A DNA stretch of 63,343 bases, the filler included, from Sphacelaria rigidula (taxonomy: Eukaryota), in NCBI GenBank assembly GCA_964200075.2. It is 7 parts of 7 records of this genome, joined end to end, with 100 filler letters (N's around TTAATTAATTAA, not from the genome) between each part and the next. Parts side by side here need not be neighbours in the genome. Positions count along the whole stretch, not along the records: positions 36,256 to 45,218 come from CAXNAA020009633.1; 6 more parts are not named here. The stretch is one strand, 5' to 3'. Under the pieces are notes generated by a model. That model was not told the origin of the DNA and did not search any database. It saw only the letters and a list, made by a program, of their open reading frames with translations. Position numbers and translations under genes: made by a program. Below, piece after piece: positions 8,965-54,381 of this stretch (positions are counted from its first letter, which is position 1; every line of letters begins with the position of its first letter).

Positions 8965-9064
8965 NNNNNNNNNNNNNNNNNNNNNNNNNNNNNNNNNNNN
9001 NNNNNNNNTTAATTAATTAANNNNNNNNNNNNNNNNNNNNNNNNNNNNNNNNNNNNNNNNNNNN
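8965..9064. other. Artificial contig spacer N44-TTAATTAATTAA-N44
   Basis: The identical 100-bp linker, with stops in all six frames, recurs six times in the window. Confidence 0.98.
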
Positions 9065-18028: not shown

Positions 18029-18128
18029 NNNNNNNNNNNNNNNNNNNNNNNNNNNNNNNNNNNNNNNNNNNNTTAATTAATTAANNNNNNNNNNNNNNNN
18101 NNNNNNNNNNNNNNNNNNNNNNNNNNNN
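18029..18128. other. Artificial contig spacer
   Basis: N44-TTAATTAATTAA-N44. Confidence 0.98.
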
Positions 18129-27092: not shown

Positions 27093-27192
27093 NNNNNNNN
27101 NNNNNNNNNNNNNNNNNNNNNNNNNNNNNNNNNNNNTTAATTAATTAANNNNNNNNNNNNNNNNNNNNNNNNNNNNNNNNNNNNNNNNNNNN
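27093..27192. other. Artificial contig spacer
   Basis: N44-TTAATTAATTAA-N44. Confidence 0.98.
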
Positions 27193-30420: not shown

Positions 30421-30478
30421 ATTGTTTATGAGCTTATCCCTGACGAGGATCGAATACCTCGAGAGGTCGGCGACGAGA
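30421..30478 (+). CDS. Alpha-carbonic anhydrase exon 2
   Basis: ttgcAG|ATT...GAG A|GTAAGA, IVYELIPDEDRIPREVGDE. It supplies the phase 0 to 1 change needed between exons 1 and 3. Confidence 0.65.
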
Positions 30479-31296
30479 GTAAGAAGATATCATGATGGGA
30501 TATACAACCTACAAAAATATAGAGAACAGAGATGGAGACATGGCTAAAACGAACGATTCTGTGTGTGTTGAGAATGGAAATCTTCCTCGAAAACACCTGT
30601 TGTGGCGGCCCGGCGCCAATTTTTACGCGACAAGAATAGACACTGGACCCGACGGACCATCATCCCACCTGTACTTGTGGTACGCTTCCGGGAGGACCCC
30701 ACCTCAATTTTTCTCCGATCCCGGTTCGAGTTTGACCAAACTTTTAAAAAAGCAGCAGAGTTTTATACTCCGAAATACAGAACAACTCATTTTTTGCATA
30801 TATGTTTCATATCCGCATGAAGCCTGCTACAAGTCCATAAAACCATCGCGGGAAAATGTTGGGCAGGGACCTTTTCCGGGAGCCCTTTTTCGACGACAGC
30901 GGGGGAAGATCATAGCTAGTCCTACACACGGCATGCTGGTGAATTTCACCCCATCTCTGCGAAAATTAGCCATGCATGGTCGGATATATGCCCATTTCTT
31001 GCTTTAAGCGATCTTTGAATAAGGGTCAGGGGCGTGGTCATTCCACGGACTGGCTCGAATGGCTTTGAATAACATCGACCCTGAGGTGTCTTGAACTACT
31101 TAGCGGTCCCATGGGCACGCGGTCCCCCCACGCATCACATTATTAGTATAAAAACGTGTTTTGGATGCGTTCAACGTCAAGACGAGAAAAACCAACTGTA
31201 TGAGGTTTTCGAGTTTCTCCACCAGCTTCGTACGTTGTTCCTTGGACTACCCTGCAACGCATCATTTTTTTCTCTTTTGATGCATTTTGTACCGCC

Positions 31297-31513
31297 TGTA
31301 ATGCGTGAGAGGACCGCGAGCTTCGAGGATCGCATCGGAATTTGAACATCCCTATGGTTAGGGTTAGGGTTAGTGTTAGTGTTAGTGTTAGGGTTGTGGT
31401 CAGGGGCGTGGTACCTGCAGGGACTGGCCCGATTGGTTTTGAAAGACGTCGATCCTGGGGTGTTTTGAACTACGGCGCGGTCCTCTAAGCACGCGGTCCT
31501 CTCACGCATTACA
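31297..31513 (-). mobile_element. Second copy of the 217-bp telomere-repeat MITE, in carbonic anhydrase intron 2
   Basis: Same TIRs and length as 8322-8538 in the opposite orientation. TSD CCGCC at 31292-31296 and 31514-31518. Internal ggttagggttagggttagtgttagtgttagtgttagggtt. Confidence 0.93.
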
Positions 31514-32759
31514 CCGCCTTCCAGAGGTATTCACACTGGGACTCCCGGAATGTGGTACAGAACGGAGCAACCTTGGAATATGGTCAATGATATGTGAAGA
31601 ATCAATTTGTTACTTTTATGTACTTCCATTCGGAGCATCAGTACGTACGGAACTGTCAAGCTTGAGGGTGAACTTATTTATCTACAGCACACACACATAT
31701 ATACATATGTCCGGGAAACCGTCAAGGCGCCCCCTGGGTCTTCGTGCGCATTAGATGGGCTACGCCAAAACCCCACATCACCGAAAAAACACCATGTAGT
31801 CATGCTACAATACAGGGCGGGAGGGGGGGGTGTTCGATTCCACGAAAAAATGGGCTCATGGGTGCTTCAGACGACTTAACACACTCGCGGTGCGCTTGTA
31901 TTCGGGTAGGAACGGTGTCGAGACGTACAAATAAGCTTCGTTTATCGGGAGCAAGCGCGTTCGAACAAACGTTACTGCCATCAGCGACGATTGCAAGTAG
32001 AATTTCATGGAAGAAAACGATCCAAAACACCCCTATCGTGGTATGACTCAACGTTTTCGGGTATATTATCCGACCTCGGTGTAACATTTTTTCCATCTTG
32101 TTTTTTAGGGTAGAATGTCCAGCTGATGACGGTTACAACGATTTGAAGCACGTGGAGATCAGGTGAAAACTGGGCTTGAAATCCTTATTTTCGATGTCAC
32201 AACAAATTGAAGGGCGCTGATCCCGGCCGAGGTACCTTTTCGTCCTTGACGCCACCATAGCCTTAAGCACAAATCTGGCTGTGCCGCGCTCTTCAGCTGT
32301 CCAAACCGGTCAGTAAGATATCATGTATGCGGCAAATGGGAAGGAATTGCGAAATGGATTTACTTATAAAAAACAATTTTGGGTGATGGCCGTGAACCAG
32401 CCTGTACTGTAGATGAAATCGATACGGAAAGAGCACGACGTTTTCCGCTACCCTTGATCTGCACGAAACGACTCTTCAACTCTCTCCTGGTTTGTGATTC
32501 ATACATTTATACCGCCTTTCCCACTTGCTCCCCAACTTCGATCCGTACGACACGATTCTTACGCACTTCCTCGACTTGTTATTTGAATGAGAAAAGTGAA
32601 CGGTAACTCCCATTATTCATTTCGTGCAGGAGGTGTGCGTGCATGAGGTGATTTATGCTGCGTCTTACTCAGCCTAGTTCAATACCGTGGCGACTGTTTC
32701 CCACCGTTGAGCCACGTGTCATGCATTCTTCCCCCTTGGGCATGTTACACGACTCGCAG

Positions 32760-32814
32760 GCCCGGCGTATACCTACCGCTCTACGCATGACGGGATCGAT
32801 CCCTACGGACCCAG
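32760..32814 (+). CDS. Alpha-carbonic anhydrase exon 3
   Basis: cgcAG|GC CCG...CCC AG|GTGTGT, PAYTYRSTHDGIDPYGP(S), the YxY...GPxxW N-terminal motif. Confidence 0.85.
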
Positions 32815-32969
32815 GTGTGTGTGCACAAGACGGTACACACTCGGCTATTTGGATACCCCAAAATTCCTCCAGACAGAGAGGCCAATTTTCGAGCCTCCCG
32901 AGGGTTTGAGGGCCTCCAGGAGAATCAAACGCCTCCAGAGGCGGACTCCTTGGCTTCGTCCAAAGAGAT

Positions 32970-33090
32970 TCAACAAGCCCGTTCGAAAAAACGTCGCTGC
33001 TTTCAACGACGATTTGACTTGGAATTTCGTACAGGAAGTGGACCAAAATGTCCCCCCACCCCCCCCCCCCCCATCGTAGGATGGCTTTCG
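32970..33090 (-). mobile_element. Partial diverged copy of the MITE family at 44072-44315
   Basis: gatttgacttggaatttcgtacaggaagtggaccaaaatgtccccc...atcgtaggatg aligns to the reverse complement of about 44075-44170. Confidence 0.65.
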
Positions 33091-33286
33091 TACAAGCCCG
33101 AAGGGCCCCGTTGTGGCGCAGGAGCTTGTAACTCTACACGACCCTGGAGTACCTCATGAAAACAATCGCGGAAACTTGTGTTGCGAGGTGAAATAGCCAT
33201 CGAGTTCACACCAGATTCGTAATTCGTTCGTGATTTTCCCTCCATCCCCCCCCCCCTTGTCGATTACCCGCCTCATCCGCGTCCAG

Positions 33287-33371
33287 CGAGTGGTACTTGG
33301 GATACCCGGAGTGCGGTGGTGAAGAACAGAGCCCGATCAACCTCTCCCTTGCAATGGAGGAAGCTGCGACG
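33287..33371 (+). CDS. Alpha-carbonic anhydrase exon 4
   Basis: gtccAG|C GAG TGG...ACG|GTCAGT, EWYLGYPECGGEEQSPINL (C-G-x-QSPIN motif). Confidence 0.92.
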
Positions 33372-33706
33372 GTCAGTCGTGGTAGTACCGCAAGACGTAT
33401 TTCATGTACCGAAGTTGTAGTCTCTCTTTCACATGCCAAAACAGAGTAAGTAGGTACTTTCTCCGTACTTATATGTTGCTGCGAAAAAATATTCCCGCGT
33501 AGTAAATGGTATAGCTCGTCGTTGCCTTACGTCACCGCCTGTTTACTCAATACTTGAGTTCTCACGTCACGAAGCACAACAGCATTTTTTCCCTGTCGAC
33601 CCATCTTGCGTCTTCTTTATCCCCGTGTTTTTTCCTCTCGCTCTGGGATATCCGCGCGCTATCGTCCCCTCACGACATGCCATGAACTGCTGAACAACAA
33701 AAACAG

Positions 33707-33790
33707 CCGGAACAGTATGGCCTTCACTTCACTCCAACAACGTGTCAGTCTACTGACCTCATCTACGAGGTCGACGGTGACTCCTACAAG
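33707..33790 (+). CDS. Alpha-carbonic anhydrase exon 5
   Basis: aaacAG|CCG...AAG|GTCTGA, PEQYGLHFTPTTCQSTDLIYEVDGDSYK, phase 0-0. Confidence 0.8.
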
Positions 33791-34154
33791 GTCTGAAACT
33801 TGTGTATCCCACGACGTGTTGGACACGCACACCCAGCAAAAACACGTGATACTTCGGCAGTTGTGTGTTACGTCACTTCGTCTAGTCATTCTTTTCAAGG
33901 TCACCGTCACATCGACACAGGAGGAGAGTACGGCAGGCTACTGTACAACGGCGTGGACGGAGATGATCAGACGATAAGAATATACCCGCAGGTATAGCGG
34001 ATGTGGAAGAAACACTTGCGTGCTGTGTTGGGTACTTTTTGCAATGGAACACCTGCTCACCCTCTGAAATAAAGTACCGTCGCGCCCCGTCTCTCATCCT
34101 GTCCATGGCCGATCACCCGGCTTGTTGTTGATGTTGCAATGCGGAAATCAACAG

Positions 34155-34253
34155 GTGGATTACTCTGGGTGTGCAGCACCGCCCTTCTTGTCTTTCCAGG
34201 ATCAAACCTATACGTTCCTACAGCTGCACATACATTCCGTCTCCGAGCACAGG
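34155..34253 (+). CDS. Alpha-carbonic anhydrase exon 6 (Zn ligands HxH)
   Basis: caacAG|GTG...AGG|GTAAGC, VDYSGCAAPPFLSFQDQTYTFLQLHIHSVSEHR. Confidence 0.92.
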
Positions 34254-34801
34254 GTAAGCCCCAACACCTGTATTACCCATGTATTGTTGGTCATCCCCTT
34301 GAATACATGGATGCTCGTCTCCCTACAGCTGCGCAAATATTGTACCTGCTTCACGTTTTCATCTATCCGATTGGCGTTCTGCACTGTCCACAGAGGATGG
34401 ATCTTTCAAGAACGATGTTGAGGAGAGCCCTCGTTTCGACTCGTATCCGAATGTAACTGAAATGGTGGGGGTAATGTTTCCAGTAGCTCCTATCCCGAGC
34501 GCGCCGGAAAATGTTGCCCCCACTCGTTTATTGATGTAGGGCTTGTGATATAGGGGTGGACTGCAACGTTTCGCGCCACGGCTAGGATCACTCTTGCTTG
34601 TTGGTGACCATAGGTGCAGGTCGATCATCGCGTGTTCCATGTTTGCTTAGTTGACGGAGGCACCAAACCTCGGGGCTGTGACCCTAGACAGCTGCCAAAA
34701 TTCCTCGGGGGTAAGGGGCAAGCGAGTCAGTACATTACCGTACATGTCACATTTTGGAAGAGTTTAATGTCGCCCAACTCTCCCATGACAAAAATGAACA
34801 G

Positions 34802-34921
34802 ATCGGCTCCACCCACCATGATGCTGAAATCCACCTTGTGCACCTTCAAGATGGAACAGACAGCTCGCTGTTGGTGGTGGGCATTCTCATTGACTCGTCC
34901 GAGTATGGAGACAACGAGGAG
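34802..34921 (+). CDS. Alpha-carbonic anhydrase exon 7 (third Zn ligand)
   Basis: gaacAG|ATC...GAG|GTGAGA, IGSTHHDAEIHLVHLQDGTDSSLLVVGILI. Confidence 0.93.
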
Positions 34922-35413
34922 GTGAGACGAAGTATGTGGCCATCTGTGGGTGCACACTAGCTTGCATGAATCCTTGTCATATCCCGAAGGCAGCGCAAAA
35001 CTAGCCACACCGATGAACAGAGTGGGCCGAAAAGTTTCAGGAGAAGGAGGGGGGCGGGGGGGTGGGGAGGGGATATAACTGTGCTTAACTTGAGGTGGGT
35101 CGACGAAGCTCGTATCAACACACGTGCAGTGTCGGTAGAGCGGAGTGCGTACTTTGCCGAGATTCTTGGACTCTCATCTCCCTCCTCTCCCCCCTGCCCC
35201 ACCTCCCCGAAAGTACCTCCCCATTGATGGAGTAATTTGATATTTTAATCGTGGGATATGCGGGCGAGTATGCGCAAATATTGTACCTGCTGAGTGAATA
35301 GTGGTTTTTGTTCATGCGAAGCAGATTTTTACGGAGACCAAGATTCCGAATGCGGGTTGTGTTCCTGCTGCGCAGTGTCGGTCGTTTCCATAACTGTCGA
35401 AGCGTCGGCTCAC

Positions 35414-35745
35414 GAGCAATTCTACGGTAGGGGTGCACCTTTAGCACGAAATCTTGTCTGGTTCAGGGGCTCCTGAAGATTCCAGAGCGATGCTCTACGG
35501 TAGGGGTGCACTTTTTGCGCGAAATCGTGTCTGGTTCAGGGGCCCCGAACGATTCTAGATGCACAAGAATATGGGTCAGGGCATCCCCGTTTGCAAATCC
35601 AGCGGGGATATCTCCAGCACACTGGAGTAGTAGTTCTAGCGTACTCTCACACACCTTCATAAGTCGTGTTTTGCATGAGATGAAGGGCTCCTAATAATTC
35701 TAGCCCCAGAATATAGTTGTGTGCACCCCTACCGTAGCATCTCTC
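35414..35745 (+). mobile_element. Second copy of the GAG-ended MITE with a tandem duplication of its first 70 bp or so
   Basis: Homologous to 15463-15718. The left end is present twice (35414 and 35485), and the outer flanks are TCAC/TTAC. Confidence 0.85.
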
Positions 35746-35885
35746 TTACGTACGTGCTGGGGAGCTAGCTGCACGAGAACGTCCATCAAACGTACTCGGG
35801 TAAATCGTTTTTGAATTCAACTTTTCATCTCATGTTCCCACCCCCCACTTTCTATTGATATCGAAACACTATGCGCTTGGAGCAG

Positions 35886-36029
35886 ATCGAGAACCTGTGG
35901 TCGGTCCTCAACGTCGGTGACCGTAATACAACCGAGGAGGCCTTCGCATCTGATGTGTACGCCATGCTTCCGGCTACCCCATCTTACGCTCACTACACCG
36001 GCTCCCTGACCACCCCGCCGTGCTCAGAG
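35886..36029 (+). CDS. Alpha-carbonic anhydrase exon 8 (gene truncated by the contig end)
   Basis: gagcAG|ATC...GAG|GTGAGA, ...MLPATPSYAHYTGSLTTPPCSE. Confidence 0.95.
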
Positions 36030-36155
36030 GTGAGACAGCTCATGAACGTTTGCCTCGGGAGTTTTGTTGCAGTAAACCTTGAACGCACTTTGATACTGTT
36101 GGAAATATTGGTGGCTCGTGGCGTTTGGTACTGTTCTCGAAACAGACCGACTACT

Positions 36156-36255
36156 NNNNNNNNNNNNNNNNNNNNNNNNNNNNNNNNNNNNNNNNNNNNT
36201 TAATTAATTAANNNNNNNNNNNNNNNNNNNNNNNNNNNNNNNNNNNNNNNNNNNN
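36156..36255. other. Artificial contig spacer
   Basis: N44-TTAATTAATTAA-N44. Confidence 0.98.
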
Positions 36256-39200
36256 CCGGTCCCGCGGTCGAAGAATCAACCGTTCCACTTCGGCGATAGT
36301 CCAGTACGTGTCACACACAGCCATACCCAGTGGCACAGCGGGCACGCGGCTGGAATGATACGCAAAACCATTGTCGGTCAACGTGCCCAGCGCCTCCCAC
36401 GACGGCTGACGACGGCTCTCCAGCCGCGGGCAAAGGGTTTATCCTCAGACCGCGGTGCGGGTAGTCCGTCTCGATCACGCGTACCGTTTCGTGTGAAATT
36501 GATGCCGACCGAGCGGGTGACCTACCCTGGCGGACAAAGCGTAGCCCGTCCGACTGCGGGGGTCGGTCATCCGAATCAAGCATCGTCCTTTACGTGGAAT
36601 CCATGCCCACTCAACAGATGACCTACTCTCGCCGTCTAGGGGTGAACCGCTTGACCGCGGCGGTAGGTCATTACGGGTCTGTGTTATGTTGGTGAACCTG
36701 TCGTCTGGCTTTCTCGTGAACCCCAATTTATCCATGTGAACATCGTGGGACGCACCGGATCGCCCGCCCTTACAGGACATTTTCTGGTCGAATCGCTCAA
36801 ACCTGACCAGTCACAGGGTCGTCAGGTCGAGCAGACCAAAGTATTTGTTCGTGAAGGTCGGTAGGCCATTCACCTCACGTCCCCTGTATGTTTCGATATA
36901 CTTAACGGACAGTTGTTGGGTTATGCTGAGGCGCCTTCCCTACGAACTTCCTTATCAGATGCGTGCCCCCTGCAGAAACCAACTCGTTAACCGACCCCCC
37001 GCAAACCACGGGCCCCCCTCCGCTACACATGCCTGATCCCGTGGTGGTGACAAATCCACTAGATGCGCCTGAACCTAAACCCCCAACTGCAGTACTGGAC
37101 AGAAACCCCTGGAACAACGCGCCAATTTCCAAACGTTGTGGGATGACATTCCCCAACAGTTGCGGCATATTGTTTTTGATCTATCCGGCGATGGTTGGAT
37201 ACCCACTGTAATCGATAGATTGTGATCCATTTTGATTTGATATTCTGGACGGTTTTCTACTGCACCGTTGGATTTAGGTCGATGTACCACGACACCGTTC
37301 AAAATCAAAATCCCTGATGGCATTCCGCCTATCGCTATGCGTCCGTACCGTACGAACCCCCTCTTGGCGGATAAGTTCCAAGTAACCCTCGATAGTTACT
37401 TATCCGCCTGTTTAATTCGGCACTCGACGGCTCCGTGGGCCTCGCCTTTAGCAGTCGTCCGCAAGAAGAATGGCAAAATCAGGCTGACGGTAAATTATCA
37501 ACGATTGAACGCTGTCACCAAAATCGCCCGGCTGCCTCCTCCACGGATTGATGAAATTATCGACCCTCTTGGCGGGGGGAAGGTATTTTCGAACTTCGAC
37601 ATGCAGTCCGATTACCATCAACTCATGATGGATCCGAAGTCCATTGAACTGACGGCGTTTTGCACGCTATCAGGTTTGTACAAGTGGCTGGTTACACCAC
37701 AAGGTGCCGCCGTAGCCCCAGGTACGTTTCAACGTGTAATGTTCCGTGTGACTGATGGATTTCCCAAATGTCAGTGTACCTTGATGATGCATTGTGCCAC
37801 GACTGCACACCGGCCGAACACGTCGAACAATTGGCATCACTCTTTGGTCAGTTTGAACAACACAACTTGAAACTCGTCCCCTCCAAATCCCCCATTGGCG
37901 CCACGAGGATTGAGTTTCTGGGTGACTGCATCCCCCCCGAAGGTCGTAGTCCAAACCTCAACAAGGTCGCCGCACTCGCCGATATGCCCATGCCACGGGA
38001 CATTTCTCAACTGCGTTCCTTGTTGGGGAGGTCTAAGCTACTACAGACTGTACTTGCCAAACCTTGCCCGAACGCTCAGACCCCTCACCACCCTCCTCAA
38101 AAAGGGGGTGAAATTTGTGTTCACATCGGAAATGAAAAAAATCGTCCGCCATCTTCTTGACACCCTTTCGCGCCCGACGATTCTCGTCTTCCCCGACTGG
38201 TCGGCAGCGGAATATGGTTCCCGCCTTTCCGTCTCCACACAGGTTCTTCCAAAATTGGGCTTGGCTGCGTATTAGAACAGGAGCACGACGATGCTACTGT
38301 TCGTCCCATTGTATATCTGAGTCGCATCACTTTTCCAAATGAACAGAATTGGTCTGTCATGGAATAATAGGCCAGCGCAGTTATTTGGGGCGTGCGACGT
38401 CTGCGTCAGTATTTGTATGACATCCCGTGTGTGATGTATACGGATCATAAGTCTTTGGAAAGCCTCGCCAAAATGGCGGAACACAACGCTAGGGTACAAC
38501 GCTGGTTCGAAATTCTGTCGTCTTACAACTTCCAGTTGAAATATCGCACAGGTCCGCAAAATGCAAACGCCGACTTCCTGTCACGCTTGCCCGCACCGGC
38601 TCAACCTATCGATGAATCCCCCATGGGACGTATCACCGATCCCACCGAAGACGTTGTATATTTCATTAGCAAGAATGGACATAGAGGTCTCTACACACCG
38701 CTCTCACTGAGAAAACACCGGCTTTAGGCATGGGTGGGCTGACTTCCACAGCCCACGCATCAGTGCTGGGCAGCTTGCAACCTCAATCGTTGTAGTCAGT
38801 CTGGAGTGGACTGTCTACGGATGCTGTTGGCTATGATCATTTTCGTGCAACTGGCCAACGCATGGTTTTCGCAGCAGGTGTAGAACCGCCCTTTGCTGAC
38901 TCCGTCTCACGAGTTCAAGTTCGAGATTAGATTTCGAGTAGGACTCGTGGACGGCGGACGGCCGAAACGGCCACCGAATTAGCCGTATCTGGTCCTGACC
39001 TTCCCCTACCTGCCCCCACCCCGGTCCCCCATAGTTTCCTTGCGCTCCTCAACCTCCACGACGCAAGGCACCCAGAAACTCGATCCCGACCGTGTCTCCC
39101 TTGCCAACCATAGCCGAAACCACAGCTGTGCCCCCCTCCCTTGGCGATGATACTGACAAAACCACCACGAAACCCACCACGCTAATCGACGCAGGAGTAG

Positions 39201-42065
39201 ATGTTAGCGTTCCGCCTGAGAATACACCACCTGGTAGGCTCATCCTTGAGTCCGACATCACCGCTTCTTGTCACCCCCGCTCCGAACCGACCCAACGCGA
39301 AGTAGACGCTTCAACAGATAGCGCATTCATGGAACGTTTGACGCTCTTCTCCCACGCCGATTGGGCCCGGAAACAACATGCACAACCTGCTTTTAAATCG
39401 GCTATCCATTATCTATCCAAAGGTTGCCCGTGTCCATTCTCCGAAATCGAGTTCCTTTTGCCCGTCGGGAACCTCAAAGCCCCCACACAGGATGAAGTTA
39501 CTGAACTTTCGCGGAAAGGTATGCTGCATACGGATGATGATGGTGCAGTTCTGTTAGTTCACCGGCCCACAGCGGCCCTCCCCAGGGGGAAGCCTACAGG
39601 TTGACATGCCCACTTGCTAGGTGATGAACTCATCCGAATATATGTCCTGATGCTCCTGCGCCCATGGGTTCTACGCGAATGCGATTCATAGGCATCGACT
39701 CATTTGGGACCTCCCAGATGGTGTAACGTTTTTATTGGTGGATTAGCATGGATCAGTGTCCTCGTTGGTGGGTTCGGCGTTGTCTCTTGTTCCGAGCGCA
39801 AGACTTCACGTCAAGCAGTTCGTTGGCTGATTGTTTTCATGCCACTCCGAATCGGGCCTGGTGAAGTAGTTTCGTGGGACTATTTTGGTCCTTTGCCCCT
39901 GATGGATAGTGGTAATAAGTATATTTCGTTGTATACAGATAGATTTAGTCGACACGCGGAGATGCACGCTGTCCCGACCAGTAGCTATAACGCGGAAGGT
40001 ACCGCCAATATTCTTGTTTACATGTACATCCTACAGTGGGGCGTGCCCAAACGATTACTGTCTGACAACGGCCCGCATGTTTCAGGCAAACTTGCGGCCG
40101 CAGTCAGTGACCTTTTTGGTGCCCACCGCATTTTCACTAGTTCGTATCATCCTTCCACCAATGGTGGAACGGAACGAGTGAACCATACGATGGCACAGAT
40201 GCTTGCTGCTGTGGCGAATGACAGACAGATGGAGTGGGATCTTCATCTTCCCCTCGTCCAAATGAACCATAACAATTCAGTCAATGCCGCGACGGGATTG
40301 GCACCGAATGAAATTCATATTGGTCGCATGCCTAGGTTGCCTTTGACGGTGTTTGGACACAAAAATATGGTGGGCATCAGAGTCTGGATCGTGATGTTGT
40401 CGAGTATTATTTGTCGGTTAGCAATCGTCTTCGTCTTGCATATGAAGTGATACGAGGACAGTACCAAATCAAGATGTCCAAGGTGGCCAGGGCGAACTCG
40501 GTGTTGGATGATGTGGTACATATCCGCCCGGTGTGGAAGGTAGGCCAATGGGCATGGGTATATAACGATGTGAAGACCATCAATCATGGGGCTAGCTCAA
40601 AATCAACCTCTTTGGACAAGGTGTTGAAGGCGAAACCTCCCTTAAACTGGACTGGTCCTTGGGAAATTTTGGCTGTTGGTCCAAGCGCTACCGCACCCGA
40701 CAAACGTCCGGTGGGAGCGAAACGTTGGTATTTAGATTTCCCACGGATGAACCTGGTTTGAAGCCGAAAAATCGCGTCTCGATACTACGATGTAAAACGT
40801 GTATCCCCCCTCATGACTCCTCGGCCATGCCCAGACTACTGCCGCTGGGGCTAAGCCAGTATATGTTGATCAAGTATGCGATCAAAACTCCGCCGGATCA
40901 TATGACGGTCGAGGATGCGGACAGACCCTTGGAACGTGTTGCGGTAGATAAGAGTTCGGGCCATTAACTGGTCCGCGGCCGTGGTAGTAAGATAGCGGGA
41001 ATATATCAAACACAGTGTAAGGGTATCATGCGTGTCACATGGGAGCGTGAAGTTGACTTGCGTCATTTTCGTCGGGGAATACTGATGTACGTGGTACGAG
41101 ATGCCGTCCAATACCGCCCGTTGAATAAGAGATATAGGTCTATGCGCAAGGGAGCTGCCGCTCGGGAACTGGTGCGTGAGCACTCAGCGCGGTTTGTCGT
41201 AGCAGGGTGTAGCCTTCTTTCGCGTTCGCAATACATGCAGTCTTTTCACAGACAACGTTTGCCAAATGGGGCGTACTTTTGGTATAAGGCTTTGGATTTA
41301 CCGTGGTGGTTGAGTAAGATTCACTTGGTCGACCCTGCCTCTGACAACTCCTACTTTATTCGTTCCCTCCATGACCCGAACCCCCTTGAGATTCGCTTGG
41401 ATGATGCCTACTTCACCGAGGTGCCGACCGCTCGCCGGGGATCCTTGTTCCTCCAACGACATGACCAAGGTGATCTCGACACAGCCGTTCTACGCAACAC
41501 GGACACCGGTTGGGATGCAGAAGACTCATGATGCCGCATCCGAGTCTGCTTCCCCATTCACGTTGCTTAGTGTACCATGTTCGAGTCGCTTGTCTTGAGC
41601 CGTAGCGTCGTTAGAAAACCACGTGTGCCCCCCCTCCCCCCCCTTCATTTTTTTTTCGTACTGCTGTAGCCCCCGTCCTTGCAGTGGTTGTATCTTGTAT
41701 CTTGTATTCTGTATTTTGTATTTGTTTTCTTTTTTTTTTGTCTTGGACCCTGTCTTTGTGTTTTGTTTTGTCTTGTCTTGTGTTGTTTTGTTTCTTCTTT
41801 TCGACTCGTGTTTTGTATTTTTGCTTTGTGTTTGATGCATATATTTTTTTTCTGGTTATTTCTGGGTGCATATGTCAAAGTATTACGTGACGACCGTTAC
41901 GTGACGACCGTCCCACATTCCTGATCCCGAGTCTGGAGCACTTGAACTTTCGTTTCCGCGCCGTACACTCGCGACCATTCCGTATACTGGAACAGTTACC
42001 ACGAGTTGTTTTTCTTTCCTTTCTTCGTTGTACGCACCTTTTGTCTTGTTTTGTTTATTATCTGT

Positions 42066-42327
42066 GACTGCTGCCGAGATAGCCCCCCCCCAAACCAGCC
42101 AAAAACGTGCACGGGGGCGATACTCATAAATGCCCTTAGAGCCGGTTTCTTGCTGCCCGACGCGACTCATTTGGGGGTCGAAGCTGATTTCGTCCTCGCT
42201 ACACGCCTCTCATGTGGGCGAAGTTGCTGTAAACGAGCCCAACAGTGGAATCGCAGCCGGTTTGCCGGGCTATCCCGGCATTAGTCTCCGGTGCACTTTT
42301 TGTAGGGGGGCTATCCCGGCATTAGTC
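42066..42327 (+). mobile_element. 262-bp MITE with GAC...GTC ends and perfect 4-bp TSD CTGT
   Basis: TIR GACT(GC/AA)TGCCG(A/G)GATAGCCCCCC. TSD at 42062-42065 and 42328-42331. Confidence 0.88.
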
Positions 42328-42574
42328 CTGTTTTCTTTTTGTTGTTTGTCTCATCGGTCGAGAGTTTCCGGAGCGTGCGCTAGACATACCTGACCGCCCG
42401 ATTGCTCTTCCGGAACTGACGGTTCCACCATATCGATATTCGATCACTGGTACAGCCTACAGGCTCAGAGCCCTCCACTCGCTACTTTTCTTGTCACTGC
42501 TTACACCAGTTATTTGCGTACGGTTACCCGCCCATGAAATCAGTCGGTGGTGTTTTGTTTTCATCAGGGGCTAT

Positions 42575-42917
42575 TGGACGAAGTAACGTGACGGCACGAC
42601 CGGCTGTGGTTTTTGCTTTAGTTTGTGTGCGAGCCAATCTCGTTTTAGCCCGAACGGACAAATACCCGTGAGGAGTGGACTGCGTTGGCCCTCTCTCTCC
42701 CGTGTATTTGTCGTGGTTCAGAAATGTACGGGTGGCCGCTGGGGTGCCTGCAACCTCAATTCTGGACGTTACAGACGTTGCATAAGGTCTGCAACGTCCA
42801 GAATTGAGGTTGCAGGCACCCCAGTGGCCACCCGTGTGTGTTGGACGATCCGCCTCGGAACTACGTAGTAGCTCCAATGGTTGTGTATTGACTCAAATAC
42901 ATTTCCTTTGACGTGCA
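42575..42917 (+). repeat. Putative 3' LTR of the contig-5 Gypsy
   Basis: Follows a short purine tract (aggggctat). TGGACG...CGTGCA ends, with aataca near the 3' end. The partner LTR is absent, so the boundaries are tentative. Confidence 0.5.
42728..42835. repeat. Long inverted repeat: 49-bp arms, 2 mismatches, 10-nt loop
   Basis: acgggtggccgctggggtgcctgcaacctcaattctggacgttacagac-gttgcataag-gtctgcaacgtccagaattgaggttgcaggcaccccagtggccacccgt. Confidence 0.95.
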
Positions 42918-44071
42918 CGGATGCCCGACCTCACAAACCGGCCGGCTGTTTCCATATCTCGTCGTGTGAGAAAAAACAAATGCTGTACGGCTGGATTATC
43001 ACTCAGACGTACTTGGCAACACGTTGCTCTCACGAACATGAACCGACAATTAACTCACGACGACCGGGTTGATTTGTCCGTATCATGCGTATTTCGCTGT
43101 TTTGAACGTATGGTTTTCGCGGGAAACCACCTTTTTCGCGACGAAATCGGATGTACGTTGTTGGCTTTTGCTGATTGACTGGGACGAGTGATTAGCATAA
43201 AATTGGTTACCGAAGTGATATAATGCCTTGACGGGCTTGCTTGTCTTTCTACCAATGAAACTGAAAACAACGCGAACTTCCGGGAAAGAGTGAACTATTA
43301 TATTTATGATATAGTTATTACAGTGTAGGATGATCGTTTTAATGATGGACCTCTGATTTCCTGTGACTATCCCGGAAATGCTCGCGCCATTTTTGAGGAC
43401 ACTGCATTGTTTTGGCACAGTATATCGGTTTGATTTTCTCGTGTTTGCTATTTTTTTATTCTTGGACTTTCCATAATTCCCCCTGAAATGCTCACGGAAT
43501 TTTAGGACACTGCATTCTTGTATCGGTTCGATGTTTTTCCTTTTGCTTTGTTTTTGTGTCTGTTCTTTTTCTGTTTTTTGTTGTGTTGGTCGTACCTTAT
43601 CGCTCCCCGTACCAAAGAATACTTGATCTTTAAAATGAGTCTCAGCTTTTTGTGGTGTGGGAGTGGTGTGTCTCGATGCAAGTTTGTCCCTTCTGAAAAG
43701 GAACTGCACTTGTCCAGTGGGCTATTGTGATGGTATATAACCGCGTGCGAGAATTGAACTAGCACAGTGGGATATCACGATCGTTTCACAAACGATCGGC
43801 GGGTATGAAAATATTCTAGTCGAATGTGTGCCTGCAAAGTGAATATATAAGTGGTGGGTTTTGGATATCACTGCTCGTTTTGAGGAACTTGTAGACTGGT
43901 CTGCGTATTTTTGGCCGTGCAAATACTCTCCTGCTAGTAGAGCTTTGATCGGCTGAAGGCACGCGCCAGTCTTGAAGGCACGCATCAGGCTGATTTTGAA
44001 ATATGGCAGATGTACGCGAGGCGGCAGGATGCGGTTTTCGAACACCGCCGTCCCCCCCACCGCCCCTTGAA

Positions 44072-44315
44072 GAGTCATCCTACGATAGGGGGGATATTTT
44101 GGGCCACTTCTTACACGAAATTTCAAGGCAAATCGCCGTGAAATCAGCAACGGTTGCTCGAACGAGCTCGCTAGATACAAAACGCTCATTCATACCGATT
44201 GACACCGTTTTGAACGAAATACAAGCGCATCGCGAGTGTTGCAGGTCATCTGACACACTTATCAGCCTTTTTTTTCGTGCAATCGAATACCCCCCCCCCT
44301 CTTGTAGGATGACTC
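44072..44315 (+). mobile_element. 244-bp MITE with GAG...CTC ends and a probable 4-bp TSD
   Basis: TIR GAGTCATCCTAC(G/A)A(T/G)AGGGGG, flanks TGAA/CGAA. Confidence 0.8.
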
Positions 44316-45218
44316 CGAAGTCACTTTGTGTTCACCGACCATCGAGCCGACATCTTTTGGATATAGGGTTACGTAGAAACACTAATTCGAGAAGGGTCTC
44401 CTGCTATCCCCTGCGCAACTGGCTCCTGACATCCTCTGGTCTACAAGTCCGTGACTTGACTAACGTAAGTCACGTGTACCATAATCCCTCGCTTATATTG
44501 TGTCTATCATTTGTATGCACAAGCGTGTCGTCTGGTGTAATTCCCCACACAACAGCTACTTTGTTGTGCGTTGAGATTGAGAACCTCCAGCTTTGACATT
44601 ACGAGCCGAGCACAGGATAAGCTTGTCACATCCCTCCCTTGGGGTACGGCTTGCTGTTGCTGCTGCTTTCATGTAGCAGTTGTGTTCCATAGTGACGAAC
44701 GTAATAACAATAACGCGACGCACGTAGCCCCAGCGGAGACCAAACCGTGCTCGCCAAGGTCTAAACGCACACATCACAGCACAGTGACAGCTACAGCACA
44801 TAAGAATGGGCGTGGGTGTGTTGATGCTGCAGCACAATGAACGAAACAGGATATGTCCCATGTAATAGTTCTTCCCCTAATTCCAGATGGGTCCTCTGTA
44901 TTCGCGGAGTACCGATTTTGAAACCTTCGGCGAGAATCACGCTTCGCACAAAAGTATTTTCATTCACTTTGAGTTAGCCTTATCTGTCGGAGGTGAGCGT
45001 AATATTGTACGACTTACGTGCTGAGTTGACAAGGGGTGTCATTGAGTGATCTTGCTCGAAAATTACTTTTCTTCGGGCTCTAGTGCGCTAAACACGCAAA
45101 AATCAAGAGTAAGTGTAAAGTATTTCACGAGAGCGATCGGGATTGGTTCACCCCCCCCCCCCCCCCCCCCCGCCCCCCGCGAGAGGGGGGGCGGGCGGCA
45201 CCCGCACCCCACTCCGAC

Positions 45219-45318
45219 NNNNNNNNNNNNNNNNNNNNNNNNNNNNNNNNNNNNNNNNNNNNTTAATTAATTAANNNNNNNNNNNNNNNNNNNNNNNNNN
45301 NNNNNNNNNNNNNNNNNN
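45219..45318. other. Artificial contig spacer
   Basis: N44-TTAATTAATTAA-N44. Confidence 0.98.
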
Positions 45319-45481
45319 GGTCCGGCGAAAACCCGGCGTGCTCCGTCGCGGCTTTGTAGGGATGCGAGGTCAATGGTCTTATGACTATGGTATGCATGAT
45401 CATGAGTGCACCCTCCCTGTGCGCGCCTCCACACCCCGCCCGTCCCCCACCTCACGACGTTGACAAACGTTCTATGAACAG

Positions 45482-47410
45482 ACGCTTGGCCGTCTCTGTG
45501 CGCGTGCCCTCCAACTCCACCCTCGTAACGCGGGGCTGTGGATCAAAGCCGCCAGTTGGGAGTTTTTCGAGGTGGGGAACACATCGTCCGCGCGCTCTCT
45601 CATGCAGCGCGGCCTGCGCATCAACCCCGACGCGCGCAAGCTCTGGCTCCAGTACTTCCGTTTGGAGTTCTACTACGTCGAGAAGATCATGGGTCGGCGA
45701 GAGCTGCTCGGTTTGGAGGGCGATGGGGACGGTGGCGGAGCATCCACGGAGAGAGACGGTGGCGATGCCGTCGTGGGGTCTACCCGGGAGGGACCGAGAG
45801 AAAGCGAGGCCATGGATATCCCGCAACTTGAGGGCGAGGGAGAAGGCAACGACGCAGCTGAAAGGAGACCGAGTTTCAAGGGTGTCCGGAAAGCGGCTTC
45901 TGCCGAGCGAGAGGAAGCCGCACAAACGGCAGGCTCTGTGATGAACGATACGGTGCGGCGATTCTACAGGGGCGCGGTCCCGCTCGCCGTTTATCGAGCG
46001 GCTGTCAAAGCGGTTCCGGATGACGTCGAATTTCGAGCCGGGTTTTTGCGGTGCTGCGCGCTGGACTTCCCTGCACTCGGGGCCGAGGTGGCGCAGGCCA
46101 TACTGACCTCCATCGCCGAGGATTTTTCCGAGAATTGCGATGCATGGGAGTTGCGGGCGTCGTACCCGTTATTGGTGGCTGAAGGGTCCGGCGAAGCTGG
46201 GGGAGAGGCGGGAGAGGGGGTCGGGGGCGAGGGCGAGGGCAAGGGCGTGACTAGTGCACCGAGCCATTCAGGATCAGCATTTGGCGAGAGCGTGAAAATA
46301 TTCGAGCGAGCGGTGGAGGAGATCGGTAACCGCGGGCCGGAGATATGGATGCGGTACGCGATGTTTTTGCAGAGGATGGTAGTAGCGTCGGGCGAGGGGA
46401 GGCGCCGGAGAAAGAGTGATGCTAGATCGAAGGCAGCGCTACGGACGGAAACGCGTGAACTCGTCCAACTCATGCAGGAAGTGCTCATGAAGGCGGTCGA
46501 GATGCACGTCGACAAGAATCACAAGAATTTTGTTGTGGCCGCTGCAGTTGGTGGCGGTGTGGAGGCCGCGGTGAGCGAGGCTGCCGCGGCGGAGCGCCGG
46601 AAAATTGCGACTGGTAAGGAAGCAGACCCCGAGGAGATGGATAAGATCCGAGCGGATGCTCAGGAGGCCCTCGGCGTTGGACTGGCGGACGTGTCCCTGA
46701 TGCTCGATGAACCCGAGGCGGCTCTTGCTGCGCTTCGTGCTACGGCGAACTGCCTCCCCACTCGACCAGGCCCGTGGCTTCGTCTGTCTTCCTTGGAACG
46801 CCGGGCAAAAACTCTGAGAGGGGAAGCTATGGAAGACAACCTGGGGAAAGTCGCGGAAACGGCGTCTCGTGATACTAGTCGTCAAGAGGAGATAACGCCC
46901 ACAGCACAGAGCGATGGACAGATGATCATAGGTTGCAAGAAGGGCACTAGGAGGAGAAAGGCCCGGGATCAAAGTGTGGACACCCTCCGACGAGCTTTGA
47001 AAGCCGTTCCGGCCACCGATCTCGGGTACCCTACGCTGTGGCGGGAGTTGCTGGGATCTTTAGTGGCCGGCGGCGCCGGCAAAAAAGCAATCACCGCCGC
47101 TTTTCGAGGCGCCATCGAGGGATGCAATCCTTCCGGGGCGGATCCCGGAGACGCCCAGGGGGAGTTTTTGACGGGGTACATTAGGTGGAGCGCCGCGGTT
47201 GAGGGTGTGGAAGGGGCCCGAAGTGCCCTGCAGTGGGCCAGGCGGTCGTTTTTGCTGTCGGGCGCCGGGGCGGCGCCGGCCTACTTGGCGGCGATTGAAC
47301 TGGAGCGGATGCTCGGCGAGGAGGGCGGAGGGGGGGTTGCGGGCGGTGCTCGTACGGGTGCGGGGCGTCAAGCGGAAGGAAGGTCGAAGCGTGTCCGAGA
47401 ATTATTTGAG
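45482..47410 (+). CDS. UTP6: U3 snoRNA-associated protein 6 homolog (HAT repeats), one large internal exon
   Basis: gaacAG|ACG...GAG|GTGAGA, 643 codons. ALQLHPRNAGLWIKAASWEFFEVGNTSSARSLMQRGLRINPDARKLWLQYFRLEFYY is the characteristic UTP6 HAT region. Confidence 0.9.
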
Positions 47411-48262
47411 GTGAGAGCATTCATGACTTGGGGTGTCGTCAGACTACATGAGTTGTGATCGTGTACGTGTTTGTTTTTTTCTCGCTCGGAGACACTTTGT
47501 GTGTGAAGTGCAGCAGTGTCAGTGCGATCTGTCCGTCTGTCTGTCCGTCTGTCTTGGGTTGTGGTTTTTCTCCGTCCGGATGTACGATTTCATTCGTGTC
47601 GGCCCGAGCTTGACGGGGAATAATCGTCGTCGCTCACGAAGCGGCGTTACGTCGGACAAGAGTTTTGTTACACTGTTGCTCCCCGATCGAGGCCCTTCGC
47701 CGGTGCCAGCTTGTCGATGGCGGTAGGCTCCACAAAGCTGCAGTTGCTGCTTGATATGCGTGCGCGTGGGTCCTAGGAATCCAAAGTAGAGCTGCACCAA
47801 GTACCACCACACCGCTCGTGATCCAAGACGCTGTGCGTTTCAAGTCCGCCACGTGGTAGTTTATTCATGTACTGCCTCGCGGTCATATCCTTGGCGCTTG
47901 CGTGTTAGCTGGAGTTTAGATGTAATGGCGCTGGAACTACGTTTGACGACATTACTCTTTACAGCGGGTACCTCTGGAAATTGGAAATACAAACGTGTCG
48001 ATGGCAGCTGCTTGTTGCCATCTTCGTGTACCCGTATCAATCATACTACATACGTAGGCTCTGCAGTTTTTTTGTCTCACAATGTCATCAAAATTCACAT
48101 CAGAAGGACCGAGGATGCCCCAATGTCCACTTGCCACATGCACCTGACGTGAGATACTACGGTACGCCCCCTCCCCCTCTGGTGACATGACGATAGCAAG
48201 ATCATTAGTACTGTAGACTTGTCTGAAACCATAGTATTGCTCCAGAGGCTTCCTCCCAGGGC

Positions 48263-49000: not shown

Positions 49001-52000
49001 CCATCCACGAAGTACTCGTACAACCAGTCACAGCTTAATACCATACTTGGCCTTCAGACGCGCCCGTACCTGCTTATTCAATTTCAACCTCCACGGTTCA
49101 GATCGTACAAACTGCGGCGCTCCTCTTCAAATGGCATCCTACGGCTCCCACGAACTCTCGTCCTCGTCGAAATCTACCCATTTCACACGTATATGGTAGC
49201 CATCTCCTTCGTGAGCCTCAGATATACCGACGATGGCTTCCATCTCGAATTCTCCTCAAGCATATACATACTGGAACACCTCCTTCAGATCCACGGCGAC
49301 CTCCAGTTCGTTGTCCGCGTATTACGGAAGACGTGCGATATGCGCGTCCTTCATCTCGCCATTCGCAATATCGTGAACCTCGTAGACATTTTTTTGCTCC
49401 GCTGCCGCGATCCTTCAAGGCCCTGTCCACGTACCTACGAGTTTCTGCGTTGTTTCTGAGCGCCTCACCCTCGCAGCCAACACATGATCGCCCATCATGA
49501 TATTTGGCAACTGTCCCTTACTGGCAACACGTCGTTGCAGTTCACGAGTCTTCTCAACACGCTGCGTCACCTCCTTGTGCAACTCTTGCTGCGCCTCCAC
49601 CACTGATCCCACCTGCTCCGGCAGCATGTCTTCATCCAGCATATCAGGCCGCCATTCGCCGCCGGTCGACGATGCCAGGGTCGAAAGACCCGTGCGCCGC
49701 GCACGTCCAAACATCACATGGTATAGCGTACTGGCGTAGCGCTTGCGGAATGCCGTATTCAACGCCCACTGCACGGCAGGCACCAGTCCCACCCAGTCAC
49801 GAATATCGCGCTTCTTTTCTTGCAGCATGGCCTTCAGAGTACGGACAACCTTTCGCATCATCCTTTCACACGTACCATTTGACCACGGCGAGTTTGGAAC
49901 CGCAAACCTTCTGTCCAGCTTCAGCGCCTTCTCCAGTGCTCGCATCACCCGGTTCTTGAAATGCGATGCGGTGTCACTGACCCAAACCTTCGGCAGACCC
50001 AACGTTTTGCACCACGTCAACAGGTGCTGCACCGTCGCTGCAGCTCTACAAGACTCGGTGGGCTTCAACCACACGAAATTGCTCAGATCATCCATTATTA
50101 CTAAATGTACTTGTACCCGCCGCCTTCATCCAGGCCGCTCTCGCCCAGCAGACCACTCTTCCCAACGTACACATGATCAAAATGCATCACCTGGCCGGGC
50201 CATGTGCCATGGACGTCTCCCCTAGTGGCCGCGGGACCGTCTCACCCGCTTTCGAGTCCACACGATGCAAGCATGTCCTCACAAAATCTGTCACGTGAGC
50301 TTCCATCCGAAACCAACAGCGATACCCTTGCAGCCGCTGCCGTGTCGCCACAACACCCCGGTGACCGGCTCATTTCATGTGAGCACACACCATCAAGCGT
50401 GTTGCAGCTCTTTGGCTTGCGGCGGGATCCACAACACATTCCGCCCTGCTACATGCACAAGAAATAAACCCCCACCGTCTTCCGGAACTCGACCAACAGC
50501 TGCTGCAAAAGAAGGGGCTCCAGCAACCATCTCTCCGAACCCTGCTTGAGCCTGCTCTTGGGCCTCACGAATAGCGTCCTTCGACGGTAGCGTTTCATCA
50601 CGCTGACCGCTCGCAAACACGACCACAGCACGCATAGACACCGCCGGAACGTTCACCCACCTTGACAGGAACCCCCCCGAACAGTTGCGCTCACCAGCAA
50701 TATGCCTGATGGTGTAATCGTACTGCCCGAGCACAGCCTTTCATTGCTTGAGCCTCTGGGCAGCAGTCTTGAACACGGATGCCACGCACGCCTCCGGGTC
50801 GAAAATATATGCTAGGTTACGATGATCGGTGAAAATATGTACCCCACCCCATAAAAGATACTCCAACCTACGGAAAGTACTTACGATGGCATAGCCTCCC
50901 TTGTCCACCGTAGCCCAACAAACCTGCGTTCCACGAAAAAATCCGCTGATAAACCCCATCGGCTCATGGCTCATGTCTTCCACCGCCAATGTACCACCAA
51001 GCTCATCCTCCGACACCTGCGTAAGAAACCCCCCCCCCCCCCCCCCCCCACCCCCCACCCGCCCCCCCGCACCTGAAGACCACCCCACCCCCCCCCGGCG
51101 CAGGTGGCGGAACGGCAGCGCGCGCNNNNNNNNNNCCCCCCCCGCCGAAAAAACCCCCCCCCCCCCCCCCCAGAGTAGATCCGGTACGCCTGGAAACATA
51201 AGCACCTCATACCCTTGCTTGGGGTATGGCGAAGCGACAGCATGCGCCACCAAATCTTGAGCATCGTGCCTCGCCTGAGCACGCCTGAACGTTCATGCCG
51301 ACTCCTCGATTGTCCGGTTTGACGCCACTCGCTTGGTACGGCGCACGTTCTCGCATGTGCTCCTCCAGTAATGCACGCAGCGGCTCCACCACCTCCTCCA
51401 AACGCGGCAGGGACGTCCTCAGTCAGTTTACCGCCTGCAGAAACTGCATTAGTTCGCCTGCTGTGCGCTGGCGCCTACGATTGGCCAGCCCGCTCAGTCT
51501 CTCGCGGTCATGAGCCACTTGATCACCTGAAAAGACCTTCCCGCACCACGTGATCTATGTGTCGTAGAACATGCACTTGTGCGCACGCCGCAAACAGGCC
51601 AGCGTCCTCTAAACGGCCCGAAATCGCGTCCAGTGTACACGACAGATCGTCCTGGTCTTTACCCCACCACAAGAAATCATCCACCCATTCTTTGCACTGA
51701 CGTCCGGCCAAAACCCCTGTCATGACGCCTTGAAAATACCCCGTAGCATTCAACACACCTTGCGTCCCCTTTGTGGGGGTAAACAGACCTTCGGGAGTCG
51801 CGATCGTGAATATTTGATGAGTATTAGCCGCCAACGGCATCTGCCAGTAACCTTGCAGCGTATCAATCTTGCCAGAACAAATAACTCCTAGCAAATCGAC
51901 CATCTCCGCCTCGTTGTTAGGTATGACATCGGGAACCTTCTCAATCTGCTTGTGTACCGTGCAATATTCACTCACCGATCGATAACCGCCCTTCTTCGGC

Positions 52001-54281: not shown

Positions 54282-54381
54282 NNNNNNNNNNNNNNNNNNN
54301 NNNNNNNNNNNNNNNNNNNNNNNNNTTAATTAATTAANNNNNNNNNNNNNNNNNNNNNNNNNNNNNNNNNNNNNNNNNNNN
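54282..54381. other. Artificial contig spacer
   Basis: N44-TTAATTAATTAA-N44. Confidence 0.98.

Follow-up and report, generated by a model that had tools for sequence, protein, structure and literature searches.

A Ty3/Gypsy integrase tail predicted to carry a chromodomain followed by a Tudor-like barrel, traced from a dead element copy in Sphacelaria rigidula

What does a Ty3/Gypsy integrase carry at its C-terminal end when the open reading frame (ORF) runs on beyond the chromodomain? The question is raised by a stretch of DNA from Sphacelaria rigidula (assembly GCA_964200075.2), 63,343 nucleotides of joined parts that we call the window, in which positions 40596–41531 (+) encode the tail at the C-terminus of a Ty3/Gypsy pol. 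The window copy of this long terminal repeat (LTR) retrotransposon is dead. Its intact relatives very probably encode integrase, a GPY/F and Cys-containing stretch, a chromodomain, a helical linker rich in arginine, a Tudor-like barrel, and a conserved short tail in one ORF, an anatomy that we base on predicted structures and family alignments. We propose that the chromodomain and barrel together would tether integration to chromatin, and we give the whole statement, anatomy plus role, a probability of about 0.55.

A family of integrase tails

An earlier note on this DNA had described the tail as the end of a Gypsy integrase, with a chromodomain and a second, Tudor-like module read through one stop. 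Translation agrees with its reading of the letters: the + strand frame 40596–41531 contains a single internal stop (TAA, 40965–40967), and the peptides quoted in the note are present in that frame. Past the stop, an ORF of 187 residues spans 40968–41528, ends at a TGA terminator (41529–41531), and includes the segment 'LPNGAYFWYK...' from 41259 onward.

Among 1.84 billion representative proteins, the 187-residue ORF matched 235 at E ≤ 1e-3, 74 at E ≤ 1e-10, and 5 at E ≤ 1e-30, a sequence resemblance far beyond chance. Of these 235 matches, 150 were listed; P0111, a repeat protein matched in 11 stretches, was discarded as spurious, and most other proteins among the matches listed are short fragments. 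In P0007 (402 residues) and P0006 (273 residues), a single ORF extends from the C-terminal region of integrase to the end of the tail. A length-shifted search added five proteins. Four of them (P0152–P0155; 716–947 residues) contain Integrase_H2C2, rve, and the tail in full, and the last, P0156, is a gene model with reverse transcriptase (RT) and only a partial chromodomain. When longer homologues were sought with the read-through tail as query, no match was returned.

Five further loci, L001–L005, came from a metagenome scan with a 10-row alignment (A3). L001 is one uninterrupted ORF of 2386 residues, open at the contig end, that encodes NADAR, RVT_1, RNase H, Integrase_H2C2, rve, and the tail, and L004 has a NADAR ORF followed by a 1636-residue ORF that covers RT, RNase H, integrase, and the tail and reaches a natural stop 16 residues past the barrel region. 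Both have the Pfam order RVT_1, RT_RNaseH, Integrase_H2C2, rve, with a YbiA-type NADAR domain in N-terminal pol (L001:190-7347, E 1.9e-45; L004:1382-2998, E 1.8e-52). The tail of L002 is intact, L003 is a near-copy of L002 that contains a stop, and decay has overtaken L005. No LTR pair was found within L001, L002, or L004, whose contigs are short. In P0152–P0155, L001, and L004, the tail is intact and in frame with integrase, whereas the earlier note would have been refuted by intact copies in which it is not.

The intact tails of L001, L002, and L004 are well diverged, with proportions of synonymous differences (pS) of 0.50–0.85, close to saturation of synonymous sites. The corresponding nonsynonymous proportions (pN) are 0.10–0.22 in the chromodomain, 0.16–0.30 in the linker, and 0.26–0.30 in the barrel, and the ratio of nonsynonymous to synonymous substitution rates (dN/dS) is 0.11–0.32 where it could be computed. 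Chromodomain, linker, and barrel are all under purifying selection in intact copies.

Between 684 and 2830 contigs per run, from four public runs of two studies, were placed on positions 39200–41600. One of these runs bears the label 'algae metagenome', and the best-matching run may be the window's own source. The likeness of these contigs to the window ranges from less than 90% to more than 99%, and all 30 bins of the segment were covered in each of the four runs; the family therefore consists of many diverged copies in those runs. Some contig copies differ by one letter in length from the window at both frame breaks of its integrase.

About 30 proteins among the 150 matches listed begin at the conserved methionine 'MR.GAA' of the linker helix (for example P0004, P0008, P0010, P0020, P0024, and P0031). 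These starts probably reflect ORF calling in decayed copies; alternatively, linker and barrel may be made as a separate product. Two gene models are chimeric: P0032 joins a TIMP and WSC protein to linker and barrel, and P0152 joins a membrane-protein-like N-terminus to integrase and a tail nearly identical to that of P0032.

Two predicted folds in series

Structures were predicted from a family alignment of 128 rows, comprising the window ORF, the four long proteins of the length-shifted search, and 123 of the 150 listed matches; P0111 and 26 short or low-scoring fragments were left out. The AlphaFold model of P0006 had a mean predicted local distance difference test score (pLDDT) of 81.4 and a predicted template-modelling (TM) score (pTM) of 0.72, with residues 80–260 mostly above 90. 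It contains three strands and a helix (78–128), a long helix (139–156), a short strand, a helix (166–178), and five strands (188–249). In structural comparisons with VIA, residues 73–130 matched the chromodomains of Chp1 (Z 7.2, root-mean-square deviation [rmsd] 1.4 Å, 53 aligned residues of 55), HP1 (Z 6.9, 1.4 Å, 51 aligned), and Polycomb (Z 6.1, 1.5 Å, 49 aligned). At the level of predicted fold, a chromodomain is thus present at the integrase C-terminus in this family.

The second domain of the P0006 model, at residues ~178–250, matched Spindlin-4 (Z 5.8), the UHRF1 tandem Tudor (5.6), the AGDP3 Agenet domain (5.5), a PWWP domain (5.4), the TDRD3 Tudor domain (5.4), and the PHF19 Tudor domain (Z 5.3, 2.1 Å, 55 aligned of 57). 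Local Foldseek alignments of this barrel to the PHF19 and PHF1 Tudor domains had a probability of 1.0, TM-scores normalized to the target of 0.60–0.64, an rmsd of 1.9–2.3 Å, and 27–32% identity over 43–46 columns.

The model of the window ORF from the same alignment (pLDDT 82.1) agrees. Its pLDDT is above 90 in the barrel and ~83–95 in the linker region, and falls to 48–55 in residues 1–30, the beheaded remnant of the chromodomain. Helices 54–71 and 86–93 flank a strand (81–83) in the linker region, and the barrel strands are 103–107, 113–121, 128–133, 140–143, and 160–165. Foldseek matched the PHF1 Tudor domain (probability 0.99, target TM-score 0.65, rmsd 2.5 Å, 49 columns) and PHF19 (probability 0.99, TM-score 0.63–0.64), with PWWP and TDRD3 also found. 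Below its top row, the VIA list has Spindlin-4 (Z 5.7), PWWP (5.4), UHRF1 (5.3), PHF20L1 (5.2), RDM15 (5.2), AGDP3 (5.1), and PHF19 (Z 5.1, 2.5 Å, 56 aligned of 57), and by title 33 of its 50 entries belong to the Royal family (Tudor, Agenet, PWWP, MBT, chromo-barrel, SAWADEE, or Spindlin). When the whole models of P0006 and the window ORF were submitted to Foldseek, no row reached E ≤ 0.001; the Tudor rows were local, with E of 0.01–0.17 and probabilities of 0.97–1.0, and we disregarded whole-model rows with an rmsd of 15–23 Å (Spindlin, retroviral integrases, and TraI). The models thus place a five-stranded SH3-like barrel of the Tudor/Royal family behind the chromodomain.

Searches at the level of sequence lead to the same families. 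When the 128-row profile was compared with all Protein Data Bank (PDB) sequences, all 12 matches at E ≤ 10 were Tudor domains at the barrel (PHF19, E 0.003–0.005; PHF1, E 1–1.9) or chromodomains at the upstream domain (MPP8 and Swi6, E 0.8–1.1). With Pfam applied to the 128 members singly, 13 matched Chromo, 12 SH3_VIII-1_N, and 6 Agenet at E ≤ 0.1 (best E 1.7e-4, 0.0054, and 0.0083, respectively), and no Tudor or PWWP Pfam family was listed among these members. Chromo also appeared below its cut-off at the matching position in all five long relatives (E 0.005–0.031). P0007 scored 17.1 bits against the Chromo (PF00385) gathering cut-off of 25.1, and the individually listed SH3_VIII-1_N and Agenet matches scored 13.1–16.5 bits against cut-offs of 27 bits. 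Because both domains fall below the Pfam cut-offs, routine annotation of transposable elements (TEs) would overlook this architecture. Atlas look-ups gave weak leads only (0.84, no family; 0.79, Chromo clusters) and were not used as evidence.

Other segments of the tail are also strongly conserved: the Arg-rich linker helix 'Y..MR.GAA.REL.R', 'DDPGP' after the third barrel strand, 'GSWCLQ.H' in the last strand, and the C-terminal motif 'RG.LRN.D.SRG', in which the arginine at P0006 position 264, at the extreme C-terminus, is found in 93% of 30 sequences. Conservation of the C-terminal motif through an overlapping polypurine tract was considered and rejected, as no purine tract occurs at the ends of the L004, L002, or window ORFs, and the regions downstream are barely alike.

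Predicted structures, a conserved linker, and purifying selection together uphold the earlier note's proposal of a lineage with two successive Royal-family folds on its integrase, and the Tudor-like barrel that it had suspected is what AlphaFold and Foldseek return. For the tail in the window, the claim stands in part. Both domains are recognized there through family profiles and predicted structure only, and neither was found by Pfam even at E ≤ 1.

The same barrel occurs in proteins other than integrases. P0069 (828 residues) and P0070 (612 residues) are homologous over ~650 residues (29% identity, E 5e-62) and share a layout of a coiled-coil region, a Ser/Arg-rich stretch, and 'GY.LV' plus barrel, without a chromodomain. 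P0066 (626 residues) has chromodomain and barrel behind an unrelated-looking N-terminus. As a query, the N-terminus of P0070 found no homologue except itself. These three proteins could be host genes, a second ORF of the element, or deletion derivatives. A barrel tree was built by a quick method from the 57 rows that fill at least 90% of 87 columns; 32 of its 54 inner branches were unresolved. In this weak tree, P0069, P0070, and P0031 group as a clade with a support of 98 among the tails linked to integrase, and the window groups with P0002, P0003, P0004, P0010, and P0030 (support 95). The tree is too weak to tell whether the non-integrase proteins were donors or recipients of the module.

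The window copy and its surroundings

Positions 36679–41531 (+) of the window are a dead, 5'-truncated, frameshifted copy of a Ty3/Gypsy LTR retrotransposon. The features assigned to it, all on the + strand, are as follows.

36679..38727, +, pol remnant in several frames (pre-RT region, RT, and RNase H), by Pfam and tblastn of L001 pol
39206..40934, +, integrase (zinc-binding region, catalytic core, GPY/F-type C-terminal region, and Cys-containing 'RCKxC' stretch), by rve and tblastn
40935..41096, +, chromodomain remnant with TAA 40965–40967 in its first strand, by translation and a relative's model
41097..41258, +, Arg-rich helical linker 'Y..MR.GAA.REL.R', then a short strand 'GY.LV' and a helix, by model and conservation
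41259..41465, +, predicted Tudor-like five-stranded SH3-type barrel, by model, Foldseek, VIA, and family profile
41466..41531, +, short C-terminal tail and TGA 41529–41531; relatives end in the conserved 'RG.LRN.D.SRG'

Pfam detected RVT_1 at 37241–37870 (E 1.1e-11) and 37756–38160 (E 1.1e-4), RT_RNaseH at 38371–38727 (E 1.6e-12), and rve at 39692–40450 (E 1.4e-7; 32.2 bits, marginally below the cut-off of 32.6). The Ty3/Gypsy order of RT, RNase H, and integrase is therefore present and is colinear with the pol of L001 and L004. In tblastn comparisons, L001 pol residues 680–760, 837–1207, and 1053–1355 aligned to 36679–36945, 37112–38224, and 37759–38667, respectively, and P0152–P0155 gave colinear matches in frames 2, 1, and 3 at 39206–40375, 40369–40848, and 40713–41525. 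Identity to intact relatives is 46% over 40713–41504 (E 2.7e-63), and the colinear alignment with their pol extends from 36679 to 41504.

At least five frame changes mark the copy: in the 36945/37112 gap, within 37760–38220, in the 38680/39185 gap, and at two places that interrupt integrase, near 40370 and near 40713–40750. By tblastn, L001 pol residues 1–679, which include NADAR and the protease region, have no counterpart in the window. This missing part, a carbonic anhydrase exon on the 5' side, and the frame changes identify the copy as 5'-truncated and dead. The chromodomain retains 15 of the 19 columns conserved at 75% or more, the linker 9 of 9, and the barrel 15 of 21, and the cage tryptophan column of the chromodomain is altered. 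No flanking direct repeats of at least 80 nucleotides were found within 30000–48000, and no second copy of the tail was found in the window. The earlier note's integrase tail is accordingly a genuine integrase C-terminus, but on a truncated pseudogene, and its relevance is solely as a pointer to the family.

Downstream of the pol stop, at 41600–41800, the window contains T/G-rich simple sequence ('TTGTTTTG'-like), which also follows pol in L002 and L004; no polypurine tract or LTR start was recognized in these downstream regions of the window, L002, or L004. On the 5' side, across the joining filler at 36156–36255, lie exons of an alpha-type carbonic anhydrase (34000–36152, +; Pfam Carb_anhydrase, E 5e-7 at 35859–36152), with other exon-like ORFs of the same stretch at 34068–34960. 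Downstream, a 664-residue open frame at 45464–47455 (+; G+C-rich, 0.59) encodes TPR/HAT repeats (TPR_14, E 3.3e-10). A second, different Gypsy remnant occupies 49415–52164 (–), with rve at 49418–50125 and RNase H at 50744–51292; its integrase ORF ends just past a 'WTGP' motif, beyond which neither a chromodomain nor a barrel tail was detected. Paired 44-base runs of N with a spacing of ~9064 bases (8965–9064, 18029–18128, 27093–27192, 36156–36255, 45219–45318, and 54282–54381) are the filler between joined parts, the pair at 36156–36255 standing 5' of the retroelement; a further N run is at 51126–51135.

Possible roles of the tandem and relation to known elements

Our preferred reading is that chromodomain and Tudor-like barrel would act together to tether the integration complex to nucleosomes. 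By analogy with the chromodomains of chromoviruses, tethering may bias the landing sites of new copies, and two readers in series could give bivalent or more selective binding. Gao et al. reportedly described chromodomain-guided integration in 2008 for MAGGY and Tf1-type elements. Histone-mark reading and targeting by the tandem are what we infer from this architecture.

Several observations weigh against this reading. A smaller, 30-row profile of linker and barrel (A4) still ranks PHF19 first, with E reduced in significance to 0.028–0.035, and where bit scores were printed no member was seen to reach the Pfam cut-off of a Tudor family, of Chromo, or of Agenet. In the VIA list for the window model, first place goes to the translocation-signal domain of TraI (Z 6.5), which does not read chromatin. 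Every VIA Z-score is below 8, a range in which the tool warns that matches can reflect a mere common arrangement; for 55-residue domains with nearly the whole target covered, we take these values as fold-level support for the models and not as proof of homology. The chromodomain columns aligned to the MPP8/HP1 cage are Leu (44%), Trp (80%), and Leu (67%), one aromatic position of three, so an HP1-type cage of three aromatics (Tyr, Trp, and Tyr) is not found in column alignment to MPP8. In the barrel, the column of the PHF19 'RW' tryptophan contains Ala, Ser, or Gly (45/17/17%). Finally, the window copy itself cannot be functional.

The cages are nevertheless not featureless. Taking the PHF1 and PHF19 cage residues to be those we assume, the PHF19 'YY' columns are Trp and Trp in the family (82/85%) and the 'VTF' phenylalanine column is Phe (75%), so that two of the three alignable PHF19 cage positions are aromatic, a fourth position lying outside the alignment. 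Judged from aligned columns, both aromatic cages are incomplete, and the ligands may for that reason differ from the classical trimethyl-lysine marks. Absence of the first and third cage aromatics is the definition of 'group II' chromodomains, a class without a settled ligand, which according to the source had previously been detected only in plants (PMC3605345). By its aligned sequence, the family chromodomain shows the group II pattern.

The degenerate barrel cage raises the question of whether this domain reads histones at all. It might instead be a generic SH3-like domain for nucleic-acid binding or multimerization, resembling the DNA-binding face of PWWP domains or the C-terminal domain of retroviral integrases, that stabilizes the intasome on target DNA and leaves the chromodomain as the sole reader, if there is one. 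The non-aromatic residue at the position of the PHF19 cage tryptophan, the Arg-rich linker, the modest Z-scores, and the presence of DNA-bound PWWP domains and retroviral integrases among the fold matches are consistent with such a role. We consider it rather unlikely, however, as the top sequence and Foldseek matches are consistently to histone-binding Tudor domains of the Polycomb-like (PCL) type (E 0.003; probability 0.97–1.0; 19–32% identity), a GPY/F-type integrase C-terminal region is already present upstream, and two conserved tryptophans and one phenylalanine occupy columns aligned with the cage. Targeting could also be left to a host chromatin protein, methylated or unmodified, on which the tail docks in place of histones; Ty5 uses Sir4 and HIV uses LEDGF in this way. 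Degeneracy of both cages, the conserved short motif at the extreme C-terminus (the arginine present in 93% of 30 sequences), and the occurrence of the same barrel at the ends of the non-integrase proteins P0066, P0069, and P0070 fit docking of this kind, but direct nucleosome tethering is the simpler role for Royal-family folds joined to integrase, and we regard docking as improbable. Least credible by far is that the second domain is an artefact, either a chance likeness in a decayed pseudogene or an over-prediction by AlphaFold. Pfam is silent on the window tail, of 21 conserved barrel columns the window copy keeps all but 6, and the Atlas scores (0.84 and 0.79) are weak; against this stand 235 relatives at E ≤ 1e-3, intact ORFs on independent contigs, pN far below pS, a barrel pLDDT above 90 in two independent models, and the agreement of sequence-profile and fold searches on one family. 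For the family, an artefact is refuted.

Chromatin tethering by the tandem, the reading that we prefer, can be taken a step further, and here we are tentative, thinking the extended version doubtful. A rigid two-reader cassette, comprising the group-II-like chromodomain, the Arg-rich helix, and the PCL-like Tudor barrel, would recognize combined chromatin features and steer integration in a Gypsy lineage widespread among marine algae, its hosts possibly making little use of DNA methylation to mark TEs. The barrel, with or without the chromodomain, would be a mobile chromatin-binding module that passed between the retroelement and the coiled-coil or Ser/Arg-rich proteins P0066, P0069, and P0070, and the combination would not be a one-off fusion.

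How does the family compare with elements already described? In chromodomain-bearing Ty3/Gypsy elements, the chromoviruses, integrase carries a chromodomain, whereas here another ~140 residues of ORF follow that domain and comprise a conserved linker and the second barrel. Close counterparts are in Ectocarpus, for which a 2025 study of TEs in Genome Biology describes four Gypsy lineages with reader domains. Three of these have C-terminal chromodomains, one of them with an N-terminal YbiA-type NADAR domain (for example Gypsy-12_Ec32), and none of the chromodomain lineages is counted among the chromoviruses by the authors, according to the available parts of the paper (PMC12477816). Compared by description, L001 and L004 share the architecture of the Gypsy-12_Ec32 lineage, with NADAR in N-terminal pol and a chromodomain behind integrase, but that lineage is described there with a chromodomain only, and those parts of the text do not mention a second barrel; the window copy, truncated at its 5' end, has no NADAR region. 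As far as descriptions can be matched, NADAR points to a stramenopile lineage of NADAR- and chromodomain-bearing Gypsy elements outside the chromoviruses.

A Tudor domain on a Gypsy element is itself no longer new. In Ectocarpus, Gypsy-10_Ec32, which has a homologue in Tribonema minus, bears a C-terminal Tudor domain on pol, and its authors claim it as the first TE reported with one (PMC12477816, from the parts available). By description, this element shares with our family a Tudor-type fold at the C-terminus of Gypsy pol, but it belongs to a lineage separate from the chromodomain bearers, and no chromodomain is mentioned for it in those parts, whereas our family combines the two in one protein, the Tudor-like barrel behind the chromodomain. 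A survey of reader–TE fusions found mostly Chromo and PHD fusions, in the portion of the text available (bioRxiv 10.1101/2021.11.30.470311). In a full-text literature search of limited coverage, we found no paper describing an integrase with a chromodomain plus Tudor. The earlier note's word 'undescribed' therefore holds for the chromodomain–Tudor tandem, for which we found nothing in print, but not for a Tudor domain on a Gypsy integrase, published in 2025 for a different lineage (PMC12477816). Integrase–reader fusions were already known, and the tandem appears to be what is new.

Among individual domains, the Tudor domains of the PCL proteins PHF1, PHF19, and MTF2 rank first for the barrel in profile and Foldseek searches (E 0.003; probability 0.97–1.0; rmsd 1.9–2.7 Å; 19–32% identity), with the common pattern '..G..V....DG.(Y/W)(Y/W)LGKI....V.F.D(D/N)'. 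They differ in that the PCL cage tryptophan is replaced by a small residue (Ala, Ser, or Gly) and in that the barrel here has an extra N-terminal strand and helix and a long excursion before the last strand ('GSWCLQ.H'). Binding of H3K36me3 by the barrel cannot be assumed from its likeness to PCL domains.

No case shows more clearly that a mobile element encodes its own choice of target than the fusion of a reader domain to integrase. To our knowledge, the integrase readers known before 2025 were essentially single chromodomains. If our reading is true, two different Royal-family folds conserved in tandem on a single integrase would make a natural bivalent reader, and the arrangement would offer a way to ask which chromatin states serve as safe havens in algal genomes.

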